Below, one piece after another: positions 6,054 to 46,777 of a stretch of DNA of 64,000 nt. The stretch spans positions 36,768,001 through 36,832,000 of the forward strand of contig OZ249436.1 of the NCBI GenBank assembly GCA_965235115.1, read 5' to 3'. Under the pieces are notes generated by a model. The model worked only from the letters and a program-made list of their open reading frames with translations, made no database searches and was not told the origin of the DNA. The first letter of the stretch is position 1. Every line of letters starts with the position of its first letter. The position numbers and the translations under genes were made by a program. Origin of the DNA: Laetmonice hystrix (Eukaryota).

Positions 6054-6233
6054 AGGGTTGTGGTTCCCGGCAACTGAACTTATCAGTGAGGATGATTGTA
6101 CACTCGCTGCGTTTGGCTCTGATTTACCCTCAACTTGAGACCAATTCCCGGGTCGAACTTTTATTCCCAATTCGCCTTCAGTTTCACGTCCAATAACTGC
6201 TGGCTGAGTCTGCACTATTTCTCCTTGCAGATT

Positions 6234-6875
6234 ATGAACCCAGGAAGGAGCATGGTGTCCAAGTTACAGAGTCCCGCTGTGGTGAAGGTCGGCAGCTATG
6301 AGCTTCAGAAGCTCCTATCTAACCACATAGTGAACCCGGTCACTGGTGACGGCCACCATGTCTCCGCAATGCGCCTCATCTGGCGCGGCAATGAGGACAC
6401 CCGCAACGCCACCTGGGGACAACTCGCCAACTTTCAGCAGCAAGTTGACGCCAAGTTGAAGGAGTTGCCCGGCCTCGTCATGTTTGTATCGGCCATCTCT
6501 GGCACGGTGTCCAAGCACCAGAACTTGCCCGGAAAGCCGGTCGACATATTCCCGGCCCTGGCATATTGGCTGGTGCTGCGACACCCAGACGAGGAGAGGG
6601 CACTGTATTCGTTGATGTCGCAGAACCCACTCGGGGCGACCTTACGTCACCTAACCACCCGCCAGGGGGCCGACAACACACGTGGGCTGGACCTCCTGTG
6701 CATGGCCATCAAGGATTACAACTCAGGCTTTATATACGATAAGATAGGCAGTTCAGCGGAGAGCAACCCCTTGGTCAAGGTGTTTGTGAGAGACCAAAGA
6801 TACGTTGATCCGCTTATGGCTGGAATTCTGACGTTGCAGAGAGCGGGTCTTCAGGTCAGCCTCGAGTGTTATTAG
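6234..6875 (+). CDS. Uncharacterized protein, paralog B (213 aa from ATG 6234)
   Basis: GC-rich open frame starting just after a polypyrimidine-CAG acceptor at 6230. Colinear motif identity with 351-1031. AATAAA near 6991. Confidence 0.75.
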   Translation: MNPGRSMVSKLQSPAVVKVGSYELQKLLSNHIVNPVTGDGHHVSAMRLIWRGNEDTRNATWGQLANFQQQVDAKLKELPGLVMFVSAISGTVSKHQNLPGKPVDIFPALAYWLVLRHPDEERALYSLMSQNPLGATLRHLTTRQGADNTRGLDLLCMAIKDYNSGFIYDKIGSSAESNPLVKVFVRDQRYVDPLMAGILTLQRAGLQVSLECY

Positions 6876-23553: not shown

Positions 23554-23760
23554 AGTCACAGCACAGCGATGATACGGTCAATAGCGAGTCACAGGACAAC
23601 GATGATACAGTCAATAGCGAGTCACAGGACAACGATGGTAGGCCTACAGTCAATAGCGAGTCACAGGACAACGATGATACAGTCAATAGCGAGTCACAGG
23701 ACAACGATGATACAGTCAATAGCGAGTCACAGGACAACGATGATACAGTTAATAGCGAGT
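23554..23760. repeat. Minisatellite, 33-bp unit, ~6 copies
   Basis: Unit agtcaatagcgagtcacaggacaacgatgatac; one unit carries a 6-bp ggccta insertion. Confidence 0.9.
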
Positions 23761-24229: not shown

Positions 24230-24352
24230 CAGGTGTGGTCCACTCCGACCAGTTTATCAAATCAGGTGTGGTCCACTCCGACCAGTTTATCAAATCAGGT
24301 GTGGTCCACTCCGACCAGTTTATCAAATCAGGTGCGGTCCACTCCGACCAGT
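24230..24352. repeat. Minisatellite, 33-bp unit, ~3.7 copies
   Basis: Unit caggtgtggtccactccgaccagtttatcaaat. Confidence 0.9.
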
Positions 24353-36438: not shown

Positions 36439-36773
36439 GCGGGGACCGGGGTGGCGCAGTGGTTAGAGCACGGGACCTTTGATCCAAGGGTCCTGGGTTC
36501 GATCCGCGGCCGCGCCGGACTTTCCTGCATAAGCAGTGCTGCCGACTGCTTTATCAAAGGCCGGCCGTGTCACGATACGTCTATGTGGAGGGGCACGTTA
36601 AAGATCCCTTGGCACCTATCGATAAGAGTAGGGGTTCGCCCCGATGCCAGGTTTCCTCCTATCATCTCATTATCACCCAATGGATTTCACCGACTGAGTT
36701 AGTTACCTTGTTCTCGCCCTGAAATAGCTGAAACACTGCTGACTGGGCGTTAAACACCAACTACTCACTCACT
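36439..36773 (+). mobile_element. Full-length tRNA-derived SINE with a Deu/Nin-type central domain
   Basis: A box tggcgcagtgg (36452), B box ggttcgatcc (36496), core gcacgttaaagatcccttggcac...taagagtagggg, (actc)n tail, 12-bp TSD ccagtctggccg at 36427-36438 and 36774-36785. Confidence 0.9.
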
Positions 36774-37726
36774 CCAGTCTGGCCGCATGGTGCCGAGCTT
36801 GTCTGTATCACGGGACAAGGACTTGTCCCAACGCAGCGCCGCGGTATGACAGGCGTGACAGGATCATCCCTAACCAGGTAACCTCAGAGAAGAACCGCCG
36901 CCACCTGTTGACCGGCGGGCCAAAACATCCCAGGCTGTCTGCCAATCATTTTGAGCGGGCATGTATACCCTTTTGTGTGGGCAGACATAAAATAAGAGAC
37001 AGTATCTTTTTGCAGGCATCTGACAAGATTATGTCTTGTTGTCCAGAGTTTAAAAATACACACCTTTACCGGTTGGACAAGACGCGCAGCCCTGAACGTC
37101 TCTGAGAATGCACTGGTTACTCGTACACTCCAGGGAAAGGTTGACTATCCACAGCTCATTTCATGATGTGCGGAGGTGGGCGAGTTAGCTGACGACCTCA
37201 CGAAGGAAACTTATGAAATCTGTATCTTTAATCAAATATGGAGGACATTTTAGGTACAATGATAATGCTAGCATTCTCTGTAATTTGCCGAAAGTGCAGT
37301 TCATGATTACAGCAAACAAATTGCCAAGCGGATGTCGTATGTCTCAAGTAAAGAGAAAGCAGTCTCATCTTAATGGAGTTCTCCGGACCTCACGCGCAGT
37401 CTCTTTAAACACTTGTAAACCTTACACTGATAGGCCTTATTTTGTCACGAAACTGTTTTTTTTTTTTTTTTTTTTTTTTATTGAAAAGAAAATCCATACA
37501 GTACATTTAGGTGGTGGTTCTGCTTTTCTTGTAATGAGCCGGGCATCAGGAAGTCTATATAAAGAAACTTGTTGTGATGCCATGTTTACTTATATTTCAT
37601 TGGAATTGCAGATGTTTTGAGCAGATAAAGTAGTTAACACTATTTTTGTAGTGGAATATTATACATATAATGTAGAATCTAACAAAAATATAAAAAGAGT
37701 ACAGTAAATATAACCTGAAAAAGTAT

Positions 37727-40700
37727 TCATAAATGTTGAAGAAGTAAGTCTTTCACAGTTCTTTTAAAAGTGCCGATGCTACATGGGTTTTCGTACAGTT
37801 CTTTATACTTATTTGCTATTTTAGGTCCTTGAATGATTATTGTACTTTCTAGATATCTTGTTCTATATACAGGTATGTGATACAAACAGTTTTGTCTTGT
37901 ACTTCTTGCAGAAACATCATGATAGTTAACAAATAGTGTGGTAAAAATATCGGGTACCTGACCATTTCTTACTTTATACATATATACCAGGATATTATAT
38001 ACATAAATATACAGAACAGGGATTATCTTTAAGTCCTTAAATAATGGTAATGTATGATCTCGACATTTGCTTCTCGTAAGGATTCTAACAACTCTTTTTT
38101 GTAATATCACAAGAGGACTTAAGGTAGTTGTACTTGCCGCCCCCCATACCGTGTTACCATTTATCAAATAGGGATAAATAAGAGTATAATATAATTGATG
38201 TAAATTTTCTGGATTTAGAATCGTAATGAGTTTTCTCAACACTGCAATATTTTTACTCATTTTTAGGGAAATATGCGTCACGTGTGCCTTCCATGTTAAT
38301 TTCTCGTCAATTATATATCCCAAATATTTAATTTGTGAAACACGTTCAACTTCCTTGTTATTTAGGTATAATTTATTATTGCTCACCGGGGTTGTTCCTT
38401 TTCTAGAAAAGATAATATATTTAGACTTTTTAACATTAAGTGAGAGTTTATTCACATTTAACCATGTAACCACTTTTTTGAGCTCGTTATTTGCTTTACT
38501 GATTAAATTATCCAGTGAATCACCTTCCAGTAGACAGTTGCTATCATCGGCAAACATATTCATTAAAAACTCAGACGAAACATTAGACAGGTCATTTATA
38601 TAAATTAGAAATAGTAAAGGCCCAAGTATGGATCCTTGCGGAACCCCTGTTGTAACAACTCTGTTTACTGATGTTGTATTATTAAATATTACATGTTGTT
38701 GCCTGTCACTTAAATAACTTTTGAACCATTTCAGTGGGGTACCCCTAATGCCATAATGTTCTAATTTATTTAATAAAATTTCAAAGTTTACAGTGTCAAA
38801 CGCTTTACTAAAATCTAAAAATATCCCAAGGACAAAGGATTTTTTTTCAAATGAATTAGCAACAAAGTTATTCAAGACATTTAGAGCATGTTCAGTAGAG
38901 TGTTTTTCCCTGAAACCAAATTGATAAATATGTAATATTTTATGATATTGTAAATATTTGATAAGTCTTTTATGTACAAGCTTTTCAGTGATTTTGGAAA
39001 GTATAGGAAGAATCGAAATTGGACGATAATTTGTAAATAAATGAGAATCTTCACTCTTGAATAGTGGTTTAACTTTTGCAATTTTGATCTCAGTAGGCAC
39101 AGCACCCTCATTGAATGAAAGGTTGATAACATGTTCAAGTGGACTGAGAAGAAAATCCGATACTAACATAAAGATTTTATAGGTTAACCCATCCCACCCA
39201 GAGGCTGCATTGTTTAGCGTTTTAATTATACCTTTTATCTCCTCAGTACATGTAGGTTGAAGGAAGAACGAGTGAGGATAGTAACCAGGGAGTTGAAATG
39301 TAGTATCTACCCGAGGTATTTCACTGGCTAATTTTGGACCGATGTTAACAAAGAAATCGTTAAATCTGTTAGCTATGTCCAGATCATCTGTTATAGTCAA
39401 ATCTTTATCACTTTTAAAATATGATGGATACTGTTCAGTTTTTTCTTTATTCAATAATTCTTTTATTACTTCCCAATACTTTTTAATATTTGATTTACTA
39501 CCAATTTGTTTATTATTGTAATAGAGTCTCTTTGCTTTATTCAGTTTCTTTTCTAACGTTCTTTTGAAAACCTTATATGACTTTATATTTAATTGTGTCG
39601 GGTATTTTTTTGATTTAGCGAACATTTTGTTTTTTGTCTTAATATCAGCTTTATGATCTTCAGAGATCCAAGGCCACCTATCCTTGTACTTGTTCATCGT
39701 AGTTTTGAACGGGAAATGCTGATCAATTTTTTTGCATATTTGGTCGTGTAAAAAGCTATATGCGGTTTGTGTTAGTGTAATGTCATATAACTTTGTCCAA
39801 TCTATTCTACTAAGGTCCTTACAAAAATTGTTTTTATTTTTTTGAGTAAAGTCTCTCCTTGTATTTGTGCAAGTTTTTGAATTTCCTATTTTAGTTTGAA
39901 AGTTTGCATATATTAAGAAATGATCACTGATGTCAGTTTGTACTATACCACTGTATAAATGCGTAGACGTATCCTTTACAAAGATGTTATCTATAAGCGT
40001 TTTTGATCCAGTAGCACTCCATCGGGTCGGTTTGTCTATCAAAGGTATGAATTCATTAGTTGCAATAGTATTAAGAAAAGTTGATATTTTTGTATTTTCA
40101 CGATAGTGCAAGAGATCTAAATTAAAGTCACCACAAACATATATTACATCATCCGTGTTATTGAGGTAGTCACATATAGCCGCCATTTCCTCATTAAACA
40201 TACACACGTCACCTTGAGGTGGTCTATAAATACAGCCAATGATCAATCCCCTATTATTCACAAGGGTACATTTAGCTATTCTGACAAAAACCGCTTCTAT
40301 ATGAGAACGATTAAAACATATATTCTTAATGTAGTCAGCAGTATATGACATGTTTATATATATAGACACGCCGCCTCCCTTTTTACAAGGACGGAACGAA
40401 TGGAAACCACGAAACCCCGTAAGAGAATACAAATCTGCCGTATCTGCGTTATACCAAGTTTCAGTCAGACAAATTACAGGACAGTATATAAGCACAGGGT
40501 CCAGTAATATTTTTAAATGCTCAATGTTTTTTGGTGCACTTCTAATATTCAGGCACACTAATCTTGCTTCGTTACTCTTTACTGAGATAAATTCATCTAC
40601 CTTATAATACTTACAGTTTAGCTTAACATTCCCATATAGGTTAACATCCGGGTCTAACGCCATCTCACAGTCAAGAATGTCATTAATACTTTCAAAGAAC

Positions 40701-40852
40701 TCAAGATGTTCTGTATGTGTAACTTTCTTCTGCATTGATTCTAATACGAGACCAACATCAATCGACTCACTATAATAAGGAAGAGTCTTAAATAAACATA
40801 ATGAACAAGCATCATTTGCATTCTCACACATACATTCATTATCAGCCATCAT
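37727..40852 (-). CDS. LINE ORF2: APE-type endonuclease + reverse transcriptase (1041 aa)
   Basis: EN motifs LNIRS, CLTETW, GGGVSIY, IYRPP, CGDFN, IDNIF, SDH. RT motifs NYRPIS, QFGFR, FLDFSKAFD, GVPQGSILGPLLF, FADD, KYLG. Confidence 0.97.
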   Translation of the reverse strand: MMADNECMCENANDACSLCLFKTLPYYSESIDVGLVLESMQKKVTHTEHLEFFESINDILDCEMALDPDVNLYGNVKLNCKYYKVDEFISVKSNEARLVCLNIRSAPKNIEHLKILLDPVLIYCPVICLTETWYNADTADLYSLTGFRGFHSFRPCKKGGGVSIYINMSYTADYIKNICFNRSHIEAVFVRIAKCTLVNNRGLIIGCIYRPPQGDVCMFNEEMAAICDYLNNTDDVIYVCGDFNLDLLHYRENTKISTFLNTIATNEFIPLIDKPTRWSATGSKTLIDNIFVKDTSTHLYSGIVQTDISDHFLIYANFQTKIGNSKTCTNTRRDFTQKNKNNFCKDLSRIDWTKLYDITLTQTAYSFLHDQICKKIDQHFPFKTTMNKYKDRWPWISEDHKADIKTKNKMFAKSKKYPTQLNIKSYKVFKRTLEKKLNKAKRLYYNNKQIGSKSNIKKYWEVIKELLNKEKTEQYPSYFKSDKDLTITDDLDIANRFNDFFVNIGPKLASEIPRVDTTFQLPGYYPHSFFLQPTCTEEIKGIIKTLNNAASGWDGLTYKIFMLVSDFLLSPLEHVINLSFNEGAVPTEIKIAKVKPLFKSEDSHLFTNYRPISILPILSKITEKLVHKRLIKYLQYHKILHIYQFGFREKHSTEHALNVLNNFVANSFEKKSFVLGIFLDFSKAFDTVNFEILLNKLEHYGIRGTPLKWFKSYLSDRQQHVIFNNTTSVNRVVTTGVPQGSILGPLLFLIYINDLSNVSSEFLMNMFADDSNCLLEGDSLDNLISKANNELKKVVTWLNVNKLSLNVKKSKYIIFSRKGTTPVSNNKLYLNNKEVERVSQIKYLGYIIDEKLTWKAHVTHISLKMSKNIAVLRKLITILNPENLHQLYYTLIYPYLINGNTVWGAASTTTLSPLVILQKRVVRILTRSKCRDHTLPLFKDLKIIPVLYIYVYNILVYMYKVRNGQVPDIFTTLFVNYHDVSARSTRQNCLYHIPVYRTRYLESTIIIQGPKIANKYKELYENPCSIGTFKRTVKDLLLQHL

Positions 40853-40921
40853 TATTAAGTATAAACAGAATAGGCTTTTTACATATTGTACAGGTTATAT
40901 AATGTATATACAAACTATGTT

Positions 40922-41045
40922 TTAAAGTACAAAGACGACAAAAATGTCGCTCTAAACAACAGAAGCGCCGCATGCACACAGTTAAAGTACAAAGACGACA
41001 AAAATGTCGCTCTAAACAACAGAAGCGCCACATGCACACAGTTAA
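40922..41045. repeat. 60-bp tandem duplication in the LINE inter-ORF spacer
   Basis: 40922-40981 and 40982-41041 differ at one position. Confidence 0.95.
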
Positions 41046-41071
41046 CCAAGTGGTGTGAGTATTTAAGGGAT

Positions 41072-42400
41072 TTAGTTGTTCATTAAGTGGGATCGTATTT
41101 CCATGAGGAGTTTCCCCAATTTATTTTGTCCCGTCCAGGTATTGTTCTTCATAGTGGCATCATTCATTGTAGCACCTGCTCCCCAGAATGGGTCGCGTGT
41201 GCTTTCCACTAGCCTACGGTCACCAGTTGACAATAGCTTCTGCCTGATATGATCATTCTGAGTGAACTTCTCGAGAAGAGCAGATCTCATGATCTTTTCT
41301 CTCTCTTCAAACCAGCTCGAGTCCCTCTGTGGTTTTGCCATACTTCCCAATGACTTTATCTTGACACAGTCATTCTGTGCCATAATCTTGTTAGCGAGTT
41401 CAGGTCTACCGGCATAGTGTGCTTTGGAGGCCTGAAATGCCTGCTCAACAGAATTGTAAACAACATTGTTCAGTTCGAAGTTGCACGGGTGGAAATTGCT
41501 GAGTGGCGAGTGTTTGCTGTAGAACGCAATGCTGTTGTTCTCAATGTATTTCGTATAAGCGGACTCTAGTTTCAGTTTGTTAGGTAGACAGTCTATTGTG
41601 GCGTATTCATAGGTTTGACCGGCTACTGAAATTCGGTCCCCTGACTGTTTAGCAGTAATTCCCTGGGCCTTGGCGTTTTGGACAATAGCCCGGAGTTCTG
41701 CTCGGCGGGATTTGATGAGCGCGGGGAGATCTTCGTTTATAAAGATTTTTTCCGGATGATCCTTTAATTTCTTTGCCGATTTAAGAACCAGGTCCCGAAC
41801 GGAGTGGCGTACAAACGTGACAATGATCGGCCTTGGGCGCCCCCCAACCGATCTCCCAAACCGATGTGCTTTGTCTACTTCACTCGTAATGCTGATGTTT
41901 AGATTTAATACATTATTAACGATGTGCTCGATGATTGCAGGGGTGTTTTCGTTTTCCAATTCTAAACATCCTTCAAATATGAGGTTTGACTTTCTCATGT
42001 ATGATTCCAGAGTGTTTATATTTACCTGTAGGTGTTCAATATGTGTTGCCTGGCTGCGTATGGTGGACACCGATTCCGATAGCTCTCGCCTCAGGTCACA
42101 GATTTCAGAGTCCTGTTTGGATACCTTGTTTTCCAAATCCTTTGTCTGTCCAGAACAGAATTCCACCGATTTAACCAGGTCCTCCGTCACTGCTTTCAAT
42201 TCCGAGCGAAGGCTATTTACTTCTCCTCGTATTCCAGTGAGGGCGGTTTTCACAAAGTCCTCAAAGTTTGGTTCCTGTCCCGAGTCGTCACCCGTTGCCA
42301 AGGACGCTGCCGCCATTGCTGGATCGTCCACACCTGAGTTCAGTGCACTGAACGATGTGTCCCTGGTTTTCCGCTTGTTTCCGTCCTTTCTGGGCCCCAT
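41072..42400 (-). CDS. LINE ORF1: coiled coil + L1-type RRM/CTD core fused to a C-terminal NADAR (YbiA/DUF1768) domain
   Basis: Likely start MGPRKDGNKRK (ATG 42400). Heptad-rich region, then RKSNLIFEG..E, AHRFG, PRPIIVTF, IFINEDL. Then FYSKHSPLSNF..SVEQAFQASKA..KFTQN..LLSTG..LVE..DPFWG..GQNKLGKLLMEIR. Confidence 0.92.
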   Translation of the reverse strand: MGPRKDGNKRKTRDTSFSALNSGVDDPAMAAASLATGDDSGQEPNFEDFVKTALTGIRGEVNSLRSELKAVTEDLVKSVEFCSGQTKDLENKVSKQDSEICDLRRELSESVSTIRSQATHIEHLQVNINTLESYMRKSNLIFEGCLELENENTPAIIEHIVNNVLNLNISITSEVDKAHRFGRSVGGRPRPIIVTFVRHSVRDLVLKSAKKLKDHPEKIFINEDLPALIKSRRAELRAIVQNAKAQGITAKQSGDRISVAGQTYEYATIDCLPNKLKLESAYTKYIENNSIAFYSKHSPLSNFHPCNFELNNVVYNSVEQAFQASKAHYAGRPELANKIMAQNDCVKIKSLGSMAKPQRDSSWFEEREKIMRSALLEKFTQNDHIRQKLLSTGDRRLVESTRDPFWGAGATMNDATMKNNTWTGQNKLGKLLMEIRSHLMNN

Positions 42401-43268
42401 GATAAAATGGCCAAGATCCTGAACACTTATTTTGTATAACGACAGATCCACTGAAAGATGTTTCTTCTATTTTCTTGGCTTAAACCCTTAAATTGATCAC
42501 TCAGTCTTGCTTGTTAACTACTCCCTGCGCATGCTCATTTCACGGCATGTTCACGGTTCGTAATGGGAAGTGCTAATCTGACGTTCTGCCTCTTACTAGT
42601 TACCTGGCCAAACGTCAAGATATTTCAGGACCCGAAGATTAGACTGCCTGTCTACCCTCCTTCCGTTATATGACTCGCTGGCTGTGTTCTAATGAGTTCT
42701 AAGCTGATTTTTACCATTATAAATGGTTTTGACCTTAGCATTTTGAGAGTATCGCCGAATGACAATTGCCATGAAATGAGGCAGGAGATGTAGTTACTGA
42801 GATGAAGCTGGAGCGACGCATGCCATTTCCTAGAAAAACATTTGGCCATCCATCTGTTACTTCAGATGTTTGTTCGAAAAATGCTTGGGGTCGTATTTCA
42901 AAGACAAACGTAGCATATCTTGGAACTGAGCTAGCTTTCCATGCCGGGGGAAAATTATGAAACGTCCTCGCTAAATGATTTGCCGGGGAAGTGTAATTGT
43001 AGCACCTTCATGACTTTTGGAATCTGTATAATTCGGAAAGTTTCAGTCACGGCTATCTAGTCGAACGGGATGATATTCTCTGTCAGAAATCGGGGACAAC
43101 CATATAAAGGTATAGACGTATATAAAATGTAATTGTGATGTGACTGACAGATTATTGCGTTTATTATATATTGTATTTTTACCCTACGTGGTTGTTATTA
43201 ATTTTAAGTGGAAAGGTAAAGTTGGGAACTTCTAAAATTAATTCTGGCCCGGTAATCAGGGTCGAGGA

Positions 43269-43659
43269 CAGTGGTTCCCAACCTTTTCCCCACCAAACAC
43301 CCCTTTTTGTCGCGGCCTGTGCACCCCCCCCCCGACAATATTGCACTTCATCACTCCGTGTTGGCAGTGAAAACTGTTTATTGAACTATAATGGTTTTAC
43401 ATTGCTTTGTTTTAAAAAAGTGAAAAATATTTATACTGTACCTGACAGTTTAAAAATAATAACAATTTTTATCTTGTATGAAGTTGACAATTTCACCGTA
43501 TCAGTACCCCTGATTTGAACCTGCACCCATATTCCCCCTTAGTCGTCCCTCACCCCCTGCTTTTGGCATTCACCCCCAATTCCCCCTGAGTCCCTACGCA
43601 CCCCAGCGTGCCTCCATTCACCCCTGGGGGTGCATGTGCACCCCGGTTGGGAACCACTG
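43269..43659. mobile_element. hAT (Charlie-like) MITE with 8-bp TSD
   Basis: gtcgagga|cagtggttcccaacc ... ggttgggaaccactg|gtctagga (TSD 7 of 8). Confidence 0.88.
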
Positions 43660-46145
43660 GTCTAGGAGGTATTTCCTACTGATTACTGATTATTTGAGTT
43701 ATTTTGTCTGCCCTGCAGGATGGTATGACTTGCTGATGCTGATGAGAGATTCACTTTGTCACATGGCAAATCTTCCATTGAATCAAAGTACAGATTCCAC
43801 AGTCGAATAATCAACGTGCCCTAGCTATACCAAGGATTATAGGATACTCTCCTATAATACTTGGTCGGCATTGTTTATGATTGTGGTTGGGTTACCATTT
43901 TGGAACTTTGAAGCAACGTGCAGTAAAGATCCACGTTTATGCAAATATTGGTTTTACGTTTTTACTATAGTCAACACTGTAAATCGCGGTCCACATCAGT
44001 TAACACTCATTCAACGTTGAATTTCCTACCTCTTGTCTCCCCGTATAGGCCAACCTAGGTCTGCAAAATATAGTTTGGAAGTTGGAATCCACGGAAAAAT
44101 CCGTGGAAATTCATGAGAAAATTAACAGTTTGCTCGGAAAAACATGATAGTCAGTCACCTGAAGCTCAGCTAGGTGGTCATTTAGCCTACGTCATATTTT
44201 ATCGGAAAAAGTTATTTAAGTAACATACTAATAAAATGCGCATCCCTGTACATGTGTACATGCACATGTACATGTAGGTCTATATCGGTCTACTGTGAGC
44301 AGCTACAGAACGAAGAAGTCGTTATTTTTTTTACACTCGGCGTAAAAGTTTTTTCACATATGCAGTAAAATGTTTTTTCACATCTAGCGGAAGGTAGTTT
44401 TTAAACGCGGTAGATGTTTTTCATATTTGACGTACATTTTCATATTTGTCGTAAATATTTGTTACATATGACGGCGTTTTTACATTTAGCGGAATTTGTG
44501 CATTTGAGGGTGCTACAGTGGGGTCTACAGACATCCTTTTCCCGCGTTGTTATTTTAGCGAAGAAAGTTGCTTTGGCCTGATGGCTGACAGGTAGGGGGA
44601 GCAGCCTTACGGGCCTAACACCTAAATGCCTTTCACACTGACTTCACAGAAGATAATGTTAGGCATGCTCCATTAGAATTCTGCTGACAAAGGGTAGAAT
44701 TTGTAATAGCTGCTTTTAACGGCGTTGCCGTTCGGGAATTTACATTGAACACACTTGGATACGTCAGGGGGAACGCTCTTTTATATGGCGAAAAAAGCTG
44801 TACAAACGAAAGATTGCATGTAGCCCCTGCATACATTTTATAGTGATTCTGGTTGGTCATTGTTAAAAAAACGAGCGTGCTAGACACAAGGTACATTAGA
44901 TCTTTAAAAGCACAGATCTAAGAGAATCTGTCCATTCATGGTATTTGGAATTTCTAACACAGCCATAGCATATTCCCTCCCGGAAATTCAGTGACGTAAG
45001 TAAAAAATGGCTTTCCTCCTTCTTCTTTTTCTTCTTTACGCCATTGAAACTTCTGCAAAGTATTCAGACAACATCGTTTCAGAGTCAGACACAGGGTTGA
45101 TTTGATACGGAGCCGTTTTGGTTTACAGTGTAACTGGCGTTTGAAACGCTCATTTCTTCCCGGTCTCAAAGGATCGAAACGATAAACAGGAGTTAAGATT
45201 CAACGCCTCCGCATCCTGGCGATCTAATCCGTCATCTATCTAAAAGAATCTCTAACTAAGCTTAGAGCATGGGTATTTCGCATGACATTGGCATGGATTT
45301 ACAGGCAAGTAACTTGATGGTGGATGAAGTACTCCGCTGCAAAATTGTTCAAATCATTTAAACGATGTGAGTTTCGGAGGGAAGACCCGGGATTGCGCGC
45401 TACCAATAAAACCGTCTTTATCTTCAACTGTAGGATTTAAAGGGCCATGATATATACACTGCTTCGCCCGGCCGGGCAATTTCGGCATGGCTGACCATAA
45501 TGAACAAAAATTTCAAAAATGCGGAAGGGTTCAAGGATATCCTGTCACCACAGGTTAAAAAAACCTGAGTTTTTACTGTACGCCCAATAATACCCGTACA
45601 AGGCCAAAATCGTGTGGTGTGGGCCAGTGTATATGACCCTTTAGTATATAAGTCCAATCCACTGATCAAGAAGCGATTGCTTCCTTGCCGAGGTTCTACA
45701 CGAAGTGTGAGACATCAGTTAATGGTTCCAGAACGGGTTGTATATCACCACTGTCTACGGTGGAGTTATCAGTTGTAAAACAAGTCAGTGATCGTATAGA
45801 AATGAAACTTTCTTGTTTTATTCTTTCCCATGTTAGCAATCGCGTAAAATCGCTTATGGGACACATTGCGAAAAGGGCACTGAAAAGTATTGAAGATTAC
45901 CAATTGGCAATTCTTGCCAAGAAAAGGCATAAGCGGTACAGACAAGAAAGTTTTACTCTTAATAGTGATTTTTCTCTGCTCGGTCAAAGAGTCAGCCTTT
46001 GGTTACTGCGTACGCATTGAAAACCTCGCATTCAGTGGGACTTTAGGGTGGGAATTCTCAAGTACATATAAACTTCTGTTGGTCTCTTGAAAACGTTAGA
46101 AGAGCTATGGATCTGACTTTAGCTATGACACAGGCTGCCCACACA

Positions 46146-46777
46146 GTTCCTAACACAGTAGACAGCCGACTGGGTTCCTAACATGGTAGACAGCCGACTG
46201 GGTTCCTAACACGGTAGACAGCCGACTGGGTTCCTAACACGGTAGACAGCCGACTGGGTTCTTAACACGGTAGACAGCCGACTGGGTTCCTAACACGGTA
46301 GAGAACCGACTGGGTTCCTAACACGGTAGAGAACCGACTGGGTTCCTAACACGGTAGAGAACCGACTGGGTTCCTAACACGGTAGAGAACCGACTGGGTT
46401 CCTAACACAGTAGACAGCCGACTGGGTTCCTAACACAGTAGAGAACCGACTGGGTTCCTAACACGGTAGAGAACCGACTGGGTTCCTAACACGGTAGAGG
46501 ACCGACTGGGTTCCTAACACGGTAGAGAACCGACTGGGTTCCTAACACAGTAGAGAACCGACTGGGTTCCTAATACAGTAGAGAACCGACTGGATTCCTA
46601 ACACAATAGACAGCCGACTTGGTTCCTTACACAGAAGAGAACTGACTAGGTTCCTAACACGGTAGAGAGCCGACTCGGTTCCTAACACAGTAGAGAGTCG
46701 ACTCGGTTCCTAACACAGTATAGAGAGCCGACTTAGTTCCTAACACAGTACAGAACCGACTGGGTTCCTAACACAGC
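46146..46777. repeat. Minisatellite, 28-bp unit, ~22 copies
   Basis: Unit gttcctaacac(g/a)gtaga(cag/gaa)ccgactgg, head-to-tail with no spacers. Confidence 0.95.

Follow-up and report, generated by a model that had tools for sequence, protein, structure and literature searches.

A YbiA-type NADAR domain fused to the ORF1 protein of a young LINE in Laetmonice hystrix, a candidate eraser of base-linked ADP-ribose

NADAR domains have already been described in retrotransposons. PMC12477816 reports YbiA-family NADARs in the ORF1 of several Tx1 families (Repbase) of the oyster Crassostrea gigas and in the Pol of Ectocarpus Gypsy elements of lineage IV, whose algal versions resemble bacterial NADARs, and it guesses at RNA processing, not counter-defence, as their role. 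The existence of NADAR-ORF1 LINEs is thus on record, and a preliminary description of the element studied here, which did not count NADAR among the known ORF1 domains and called for a novelty check, is weakened on that point. The available text of PMC12477816 on C. gigas speaks only of several families and is silent on domain order, selection, residues and swapping. In the literature searched, with Repbase Reports and subscription journals outside the search, no further report of a NADAR in a retrotransposon was found. A second close relative is the L1-type (type II, Tnp22) ORF1 protein of L1, CR1 and L2 elements, which in CR1 and L2 has PHD and esterase as known add-ons. As far as the available parts of the two papers go, NADAR is not listed in the ORF1 domain table of PMC4120745 and has zero occurrences in the CR1-group vertebrate survey PMC13343379.

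The chemistry of the domain is better charted. All four NADAR families strip guanine-N2 ADP-ribose off DNA and RNA (PMC11833690, PMC12945103), and the YbiA-type and general families also remove cytosine-linked ADP-ribose (PMC12945103, PMC11833690). Characterised NADARs leave in place ADP-ribose on phosphate ends and 2'-OH groups (PMC11833690), on thymine (PMC11125620) and at guanine N1, the mark of PARP10/15 (bioRxiv 10.64898/2026.03.31.715305). In vitro activity on guanine-ADP-ribose is common to NADARs with other jobs, including riboflavin clean-up by YbiA and trans-splicing by SNA-3 (PMC11125620), so intact residues do not fix a role. A phage precedent is T4 AdfN, which defeats DarTG1 by its NADAR activity (PMC11257639). 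To these systems the present analysis adds a non-L1 (probably CR1-type) carrier, breadth, evidence for a single fusion, swapping, selection and an animal Gypsy capture.

The window analysed here is a stretch of 64,000 nucleotides on contig C1 of the L. hystrix assembly (627 Mb), in which all genome-wide searches were run. An A/T-rich LINE with open ORF1 and ORF2 frames lies on the minus strand of the window (Table 1). The 5' end of the element is hinted at by a break in contigs near 42540-42586 and by a step in depth, and depth climbs toward the 3' end (three runs of one sample in both cases). Within 42400-44500, no target-site duplication of six or more bases adjoining the tail was found, and none of the joints listed is an empty-site joint. 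Among 47 DNA matches in the genome (40 of 187 candidates scored), the window copy is the only full-length one. Several 5'-truncated copies are 96-99% alike to it, and the family has therefore been recently active. The window element is a young, intact non-LTR retrotransposon with a probable CR1-type ORF2.

Table 1. Positions of the element, its domains and other features discussed in the text (window coordinates unless a locus or contig is named)
Feature	Position	Strand	Basis or remark
ORF1, L1-type (type II) coiled coil-RRM-CTD with C-terminal NADAR, 442 aa	41072..42400	-	single ATG-to-stop frame, Pfam, model
Disordered N-terminus, aa 1-45	42266..42400	-	pLDDT <50
Coiled coil, aa 46-135	41996..42265	-	single model helix H46-135; weak coiled-coil Pfam matches
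RRM, about aa 136-225	41726..41995	-	Z 11.2 vs 2w7a, model range 138-224
L1-type CTD, about aa 226-282	41555..41725	-	2yko match as far as aa 284
YbiA-type NADAR, about aa 283-442	41075..41554	-	Pfam, TIGR02464, PDB alignment, model
Pfam NADAR core, aa 294-439	41084-41521	-	PF08719
Weak match to NF053876, NADAR-family anti-phage protein	41075-41550	-	70.5 bits (cut-off 240)
Inter-ORF spacer, 219 bp	40853..41071	-	between ORF1 and ORF2
60-bp tandem duplication inside the spacer	40922-41045
ORF2, 1041 aa, open	37727..40852	-	APE endonuclease aa 126-311; reverse transcriptase aa 607-848
3' UTR and 24-nt poly(A) tail	37456..37726	-	T run 37456-37479 on +; start of the young 5'-truncated copies (96-99% alike)
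Probable 5' UTR	42401..42586	-	5' end about 42540-42586, inferred
Likely SINE	36441-36774	+	very high-copy repeat, tRNA-like head, short ACTC-type tail; ARAGORN calls no tRNA in it
Two long, mutually similar frames, possible exons of duplicated genes	330-1028 and 6123-6872	+	no Pfam match for either at 0.01
Minisatellite, 28 bp x 22	46146-46774
Minisatellite, 33 bp x 6	23554-23760
Minisatellite, 33 bp x 4	24230-24352
Gypsy LTR Pol with NADAR	L061:3815-8794 (C1:23015500-23024500)	+	NADAR between protease and RT
Gypsy LTR Pol with NADAR	L062:1-4701	-	NADAR between protease and RT
Gypsy-like NADAR	C7:33147867-33148331	-	52-53% identical to Gypsy NADAR
Gypsy-like NADAR	C11:29367949-29368416	-	52-53% identical to Gypsy NADAR
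Gypsy-like NADAR	C3:1197340-1197807	+	52-53% identical to Gypsy NADAR
Separate 232-aa frame between ORF1-NADAR and ORF2	L063:2280-2975	+

The N-terminal part of ORF1 resembles the RNA-binding protein of L1. An AlphaFold model built from a 36-row alignment (mean pLDDT 88.8) shows a disordered head, a coiled coil, an RRM, a CTD and the NADAR in this order; a single-sequence fold was discarded at a pLDDT of 44.6. Against human L1 ORF1p the model scores Z 11.2 for the RRM and 10.7 for the trimer chain (aa 92-284), and the core matches 2ykp at E 1e-7, with no Pfam Tnp22 match in ORF1. As modelled, the core fits an L1-type (type II) ORF1p, with coiled coil, RRM and CTD in order and in the L1 fold. 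By its likeness to 2yko, the protein would trimerise and bind RNA. It shares domain order and fold with the ORF1 proteins of L1, CR1 and L2, but where those of CR1 and L2 may carry a PHD or an esterase it carries a NADAR, which follows the CTD directly without a long linker.

The identity of this C-terminal domain is clear from several comparisons. Pfam NADAR PF08719 matches it at E 1.6e-39 and 136 bits (cut-off 35.1) and TIGR02464 at 132 bits (cut-off 73.7); PDB sequence matches include the Phytophthora nicotianae NADAR 8bau (3.8e-14) and E. coli YbiA 2b3w (3.4e-10). The modelled domain superposes on 8bau with Z 20.1 (rmsd 2.4, 162 aligned, aa 279-442) and on YbiA with Z 16.8, and reaches only Z 7.8 with the DarT1 antitoxin 8bat. 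The in-frame fusion and the NADAR motifs quoted in the preliminary description are borne out by the single ATG-to-stop frame and its translation. The domain does lie at the C-terminal end, as that description said, but at about aa 283-440 of 442 and not at residues ~305-459; the latter numbering was off because it was counted from the upstream stop of a 464-aa stop-to-stop frame.

The active site has been preserved almost completely. E319, K326, K349, G352 and D360 correspond to E43, K50, K75, G78 and D86 of the P. nicotianae NADAR, and W363, R367, E399, D403 and W406 to its W89, R93, E125, D130 and W133, while R79 is replaced by S353. Eight of nine ADP-ribose-contacting side chains are identical to those in 8bau, both glutamates included (contact roles from PMC11543638), which agrees with the intact catalytic set described earlier; for the listed ADP-ribose binders (E43, K50, R79, D86, W89, R93, D130, W133) the figure is seven of eight, R79 being Ser. 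K349 is the equivalent of the K75/K115 position tied to DNA recognition (PMC11543638), and the S. coelicolor NADAR strictly requires its equivalent of E399 (PMC12945103). The domain is classed as YbiA-type because the residue on its last strand, E399, is a glutamate (criterion of PMC11125620). It thus shares fold and last-strand Glu with the YbiA-family NADARs of E. coli, P. nicotianae and S. coelicolor (SCO5665), but unlike them it is fused to a retrotransposon RNA chaperone, has lost R79 and has an E399-D403 loop one residue shorter. The domain is probably an active enzyme.

Comparison with the DarT1-related NADARs places the domain in a separate subfamily. Its catalytic residue is Glu, whereas AdfN (gp30.3) uses His and DarG1 Asp. 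An identity as the DarT1-associated antitoxin DarG1 was rejected, given Glu in place of Asp, an ORF1 core in place of the N-terminal extension and a LINE ORF2 as neighbour. With T4 AdfN, the element has in common that a selfish replicator carries an orphan NADAR, along with the proposed logic of counter-defence; AdfN and DarG1 erase DarT1 marks, whereas the window NADAR sits in a eukaryotic host.

The fusion is widespread in this genome. The full ORF1 protein has at least 96 matches, mostly full length and 30-62% identical (95 of 948 candidates scored). All of the best 150 of 741 candidate places for Pfam NADAR exceed the cut-off, and 146 are stop-free, a share biased upward since the best-scoring places were the ones scored. 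At 90% identity, the 55 NADAR frames read from 63 loci make 25 groups, of which 24 are LINE and one is Gypsy; four of the loci were left out of the grouping, and all belong to listed families. The NADAR is thus kept in frame by no fewer than 24 LINE families, which are 25-62% identical. An ORF2 match lies in the flank of 29 of the 30 closest loci. Inspected by eye, 35 of the best 40 ORF1-core hits have a NADAR match just downstream, and the other five were uncheckable.

The same arrangement recurs in other proteins. In a library of 50%-identity representatives, searched with a profile that favours fusions, 145 of the best 150 hits show the core followed by the NADAR. Their median identity to the nearest family here is 36%, and only six exceed 50%. 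Read from their core, these proteins, which come without DNA context, would be LINE ORF1s. Four matches were found among Atlas clusters of the fusion (best scores 0.95-0.96), with Annelida named for the few members that have a phylum. Pfam searches of 20 longer fusion relatives gave no domain besides NADAR above cut-offs.

Selection on the domain is strongly purifying, as the preliminary description had proposed to check. A codon model gives dN/dS of 0.064-0.123 for the NADAR in six of ten diverged family pairs (dS <5), the remaining four being saturated, and dN/dS = 1 is rejected in all ten (2dlnL 66-143). Eight pairs of near-identical copies have too few changes, and most are indistinguishable from a ratio of 1, as expected from decay after insertion. 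Over 23 families, mean identity is 0.41 for the NADAR, 0.38 for the RRM, 0.34 for the CTD and 0.22 for the coiled coil, so that the NADAR is conserved at least as well as RRM and CTD. A neutral passenger, or a chimera confined to the window copy, is refuted by the many families in frame, the dN/dS far below 1 and the library fusions, and can practically be dismissed.

Catalytic positions stand well above the median column. Across the 145 fusion relatives, where median column conservation is 39%, E319 is kept in all and E399 in 143; S301 and W363 are each kept in 144, W406 in 137, D403 in 120 and K349 in 119, and K326 is K or R in 133, with M, H or C in a few lineages. The equivalent of R93, a pyrophosphate contact retained in the window element, is R or K in only 21-27 relatives, that of R79 is kept in 45-46, and that of D86 varies. 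A proposal that drift of the ADP-half pocket is specific to LINE NADARs (R93 in 27/145 vs 45/46 stand-alone) was dropped: the R93 contrast was not relied on because the stand-alone set was found with the window sequence, which itself has Arg, nor the drift idea as a whole, because the D86 count shifted with the alignment.

The junction between CTD and NADAR is nearly fixed. Of the 132 relatives that could be parsed (13 of the 145 could not), 120 have 27-28 residues between a conserved CTD proline and a NADAR serine, as do 21 of 23 families of this genome, which supports a single ancient fusion. An L1-type ORF1 would have acquired the domain a single time, and the resulting cassette would later have moved from one ORF2 lineage to another.

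The ORF2 proteins below this cassette are of two kinds. The window ORF2 has APE and RT without RNase H, and L1 and R2 are excluded. It scores 55-63 bits against human L1 ORF2p, compared with 233-273 bits for the ORF2s of families L045 and L047, which the RT tree sets apart as a branch of their own (support 100). The window ORF2 is not L1/Tx1-type; by its RT motifs and the exclusion of L1 and R2, it and most of the others are probably members of the CR1 group. A poly(A) tail together with an ORF1 misfits the vertebrate survey PMC13343379, which within the CR1 group records this combination only in Zenon elements. The L1/Tx1-type families L045 and L047 probably carry the same cassette as the C. 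gigas Tx1 elements, the oyster being compared by description only. The likeness of the oyster LINEs to the window element is the YbiA-family NADAR in ORF1; they are L1/Tx1-type, whereas its ORF2 is not.

Trees of the two proteins disagree in ways that point to exchange. L042 (CR1-type ORF2, two copies read) and L047 (L1/Tx1-type, four copies read) have sister ORF1s with support 100/99, and a tree constrained to unite the two Tx1-linked ORF1s is rejected (p-AU 0.0013). In families L022 and L052, ORF2 DNA that is 94-96% alike lies beneath unrelated ORF1s, both with a NADAR (p-AU 0.0003). Both p-AU values are post hoc, since the groups were named after viewing the trees. By these comparisons, the cassette is joined to ORF2s of both the CR1 type and the L1/Tx1 type and has changed hands between the two; ORF1 exchange between LINE lineages is itself already known (PMC4120745).

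Individual loci illustrate this variety. Near-identical ORF2s under different ORF1-NADARs, as in a recent swap, are seen in L022/L024 vs L052-L058, and sister ORF1-NADARs on CR1-type vs L1/Tx1-type ORF2s in L042/L043 vs L047-L049 and L051. An eight-copy ORF1-NADAR family (L033-L040, L046, L075) has tandem repeats after ORF1 and, in the one copy read, the start of an L1/Tx1-type endonuclease ~3.4 kb downstream, a link that is uncertain. The separate frame in L063 gives no Pfam match at 0.001; by eye, its motifs look like those of an SGNH esterase. The ORF2 N-termini of L039 and L059 show, by eye, a PHD-like cysteine cluster, of which only a remnant is present in the window ORF2.

LINEs are not the only carriers. 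Two loci encode a Gypsy LTR Pol whose NADAR, like those of phages, has His in place of the catalytic Glu. Three further NADARs on C7, C11 and C3, one of them in a 1667-aa open frame, are by sequence probably a second Gypsy family. The Ectocarpus Gypsy Pol is a comparable capture by a retroelement, but in an LTR element with the NADAR in Pol, whereas the window LINE has it in ORF1. Animal proteins of three to seven tandem NADARs (P0074 and P0084, which are XP_048255699.1 and XP_048255702.1 of Haliotis rufescens; P0076, P0112, P0177) are high-ranking matches to the ORF1-NADAR profile and, in a tree of 118 rows, lie among those of LINEs with weak support. In that tree, the LINE, Gypsy and tandem NADARs lie mostly apart from stand-alone ones, without starred support. 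The tandem proteins are possible donors of the LINE NADARs or domesticated copies of them. Viral NADARs also appear among the fold matches. Invertebrate RNA viruses carry NADAR, there largely mutually exclusive with Macro domains, and PMC9503650 argues for counter-defence by the NADARs of animal RNA viruses, with retroelements unmentioned in its available text. NADAR has been captured repeatedly by RNA-based parasites, namely in LINE ORF1, Gypsy Pol and RNA viruses.

What the domain does for the element can be approached from its position. Like that of L1, ORF1p trimers would coat the element RNA and provide many NADAR sites per RNP, close to single-stranded RNA and to the new cDNA made in target-primed reverse transcription. 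Because ORF1p would coat RNA in this way, the eraser would be brought to the element's own single-stranded template and cDNA. There it would cut ADP-ribose from guanine N2, perhaps also from cytosine. Bulky base adducts would otherwise block translation or reverse transcription, and their erasure would rescue the element. The host would supply the writer, an ADP-ribosyltransferase that modifies bases as CARP-1 and pierisin do, and the domain would act as a counter-defence in the manner of T4 AdfN. Of the eraser interpretation in the preliminary description, the fusion, the intact residues, the retention and the selection all hold, and the chemistry is plausible because every tested NADAR family removes guanine-N2 ADP-ribose. 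By analogy with these families, base-linked ADP-ribose on nucleic acid is somewhat the likelier substrate. That the mark is placed by a host defence against the element is a tentative suggestion, and so is the whole counter-defence reading, which by analogy attracts slightly less than even confidence; it is held there because no guanine-specific writer is documented for this host and the marks of PARPs resist tested NADARs.

Candidate writers were sought in the genome. In animals the candidate writer class is that of CARP-1, with homologues in bivalves, cnidarians, sponges and further bilaterians (PMC12945103). Scabin-like PF22596 gave no candidates in this genome, with 14 control genomes also blank and genes of this kind split by introns, and DarT PF14487 gave no match from one candidate, the same 14 being equally blank. 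Ordinary PARPs gave 14 exon-level matches; they are not known to write a mark on which NADARs act, since tested NADARs do not erase theirs.

Other uses of the domain have to be weighed against erasure as counter-defence. An active hydrolase could simply serve element housekeeping, cleaning away ADP-ribose or ribosyl adducts that arise in the retrotransposition cycle from RNA processing, repair at the nick, or chemical or microbial-toxin damage. The residue and selection evidence supports this equally well. That L1, which shares the ORF1 core, and the majority of other LINEs transpose with no NADAR weighs against a general need for such cleaning. The ORF1 types in question are those of PMC4120745, and tested NADARs are also inactive on end-linked marks made at breaks (PMC11833690). 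Housekeeping is judged unlikely, even though it is near the published guess of processing of RNA intermediates (PMC12477816) and NADARs associate with RNA-repair systems (PMC9503650).

If the domain mainly binds, reading ADP-ribose or RNA in RNP assembly, localisation or splice-leader interactions, catalysis would be secondary or absent. In C. elegans, the trans-splicing protein SNA-3 works with three NADARs (PMC11125620), transposition does not need the esterase domain that some CR1/L2 ORF1s carry (PMC13343379), K326 is M, H or C in a few lineages, and the equivalents of R93 and R79 drift. The ribose-facing glutamates are nevertheless the most conserved charged positions (145/145 and 143/145), the usual mark of catalysis, and a binding module is a little less likely still than housekeeping. 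Least likely of these three uses is action on a soluble signal or metabolite derived from NAD or ADP-ribose, by which the element would damp host immune signalling. Its abundant ORF1p, an abundance established for L1, would deliver much enzyme. Such a role has been proposed for many viral NADARs (PMC9503650), and the known substrates of YbiA are small ribosyl N-glycosides (PMC11543638). On the other side, a NADAR with a near-fixed junction to an RNA-binding scaffold suggests action on bound nucleic acid, and K349, the residue whose equivalent is linked to DNA recognition, is widely kept among relatives.

Together, these observations bear on both LINE biology and ADP-ribosylation. NADAR becomes a third enzyme-like or reader module for LINE ORF1, after esterase and PHD, and the families here show plainly, inside one genome, that ORF1 can move from one LINE group to another. 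PMC11125620 and PMC12945103 raise the questions of what eukaryotic NADARs act on in nature and what animal base-modifying ADP-ribosyltransferases do, and an intact NADAR on the RNA-coating protein of well over 100 diverged LINE lineages, taken up separately by Gypsy, is a reason to look at ADP-ribose on retroelement RNA and cDNA. The idea lends itself to direct testing, with a young, intact element, a small and soluble-looking domain and existing assays. In its broadest form, that invertebrates restrict retroelements by base ADP-ribosylation of RNA or cDNA and that elements answered by capturing NADARs several times, it is at present doubtful. If true, it would be a eukaryotic counterpart of the contest between DarTG1 and AdfN, and a physiological role would follow for the NADARs and CARP-1-like enzymes of animals.
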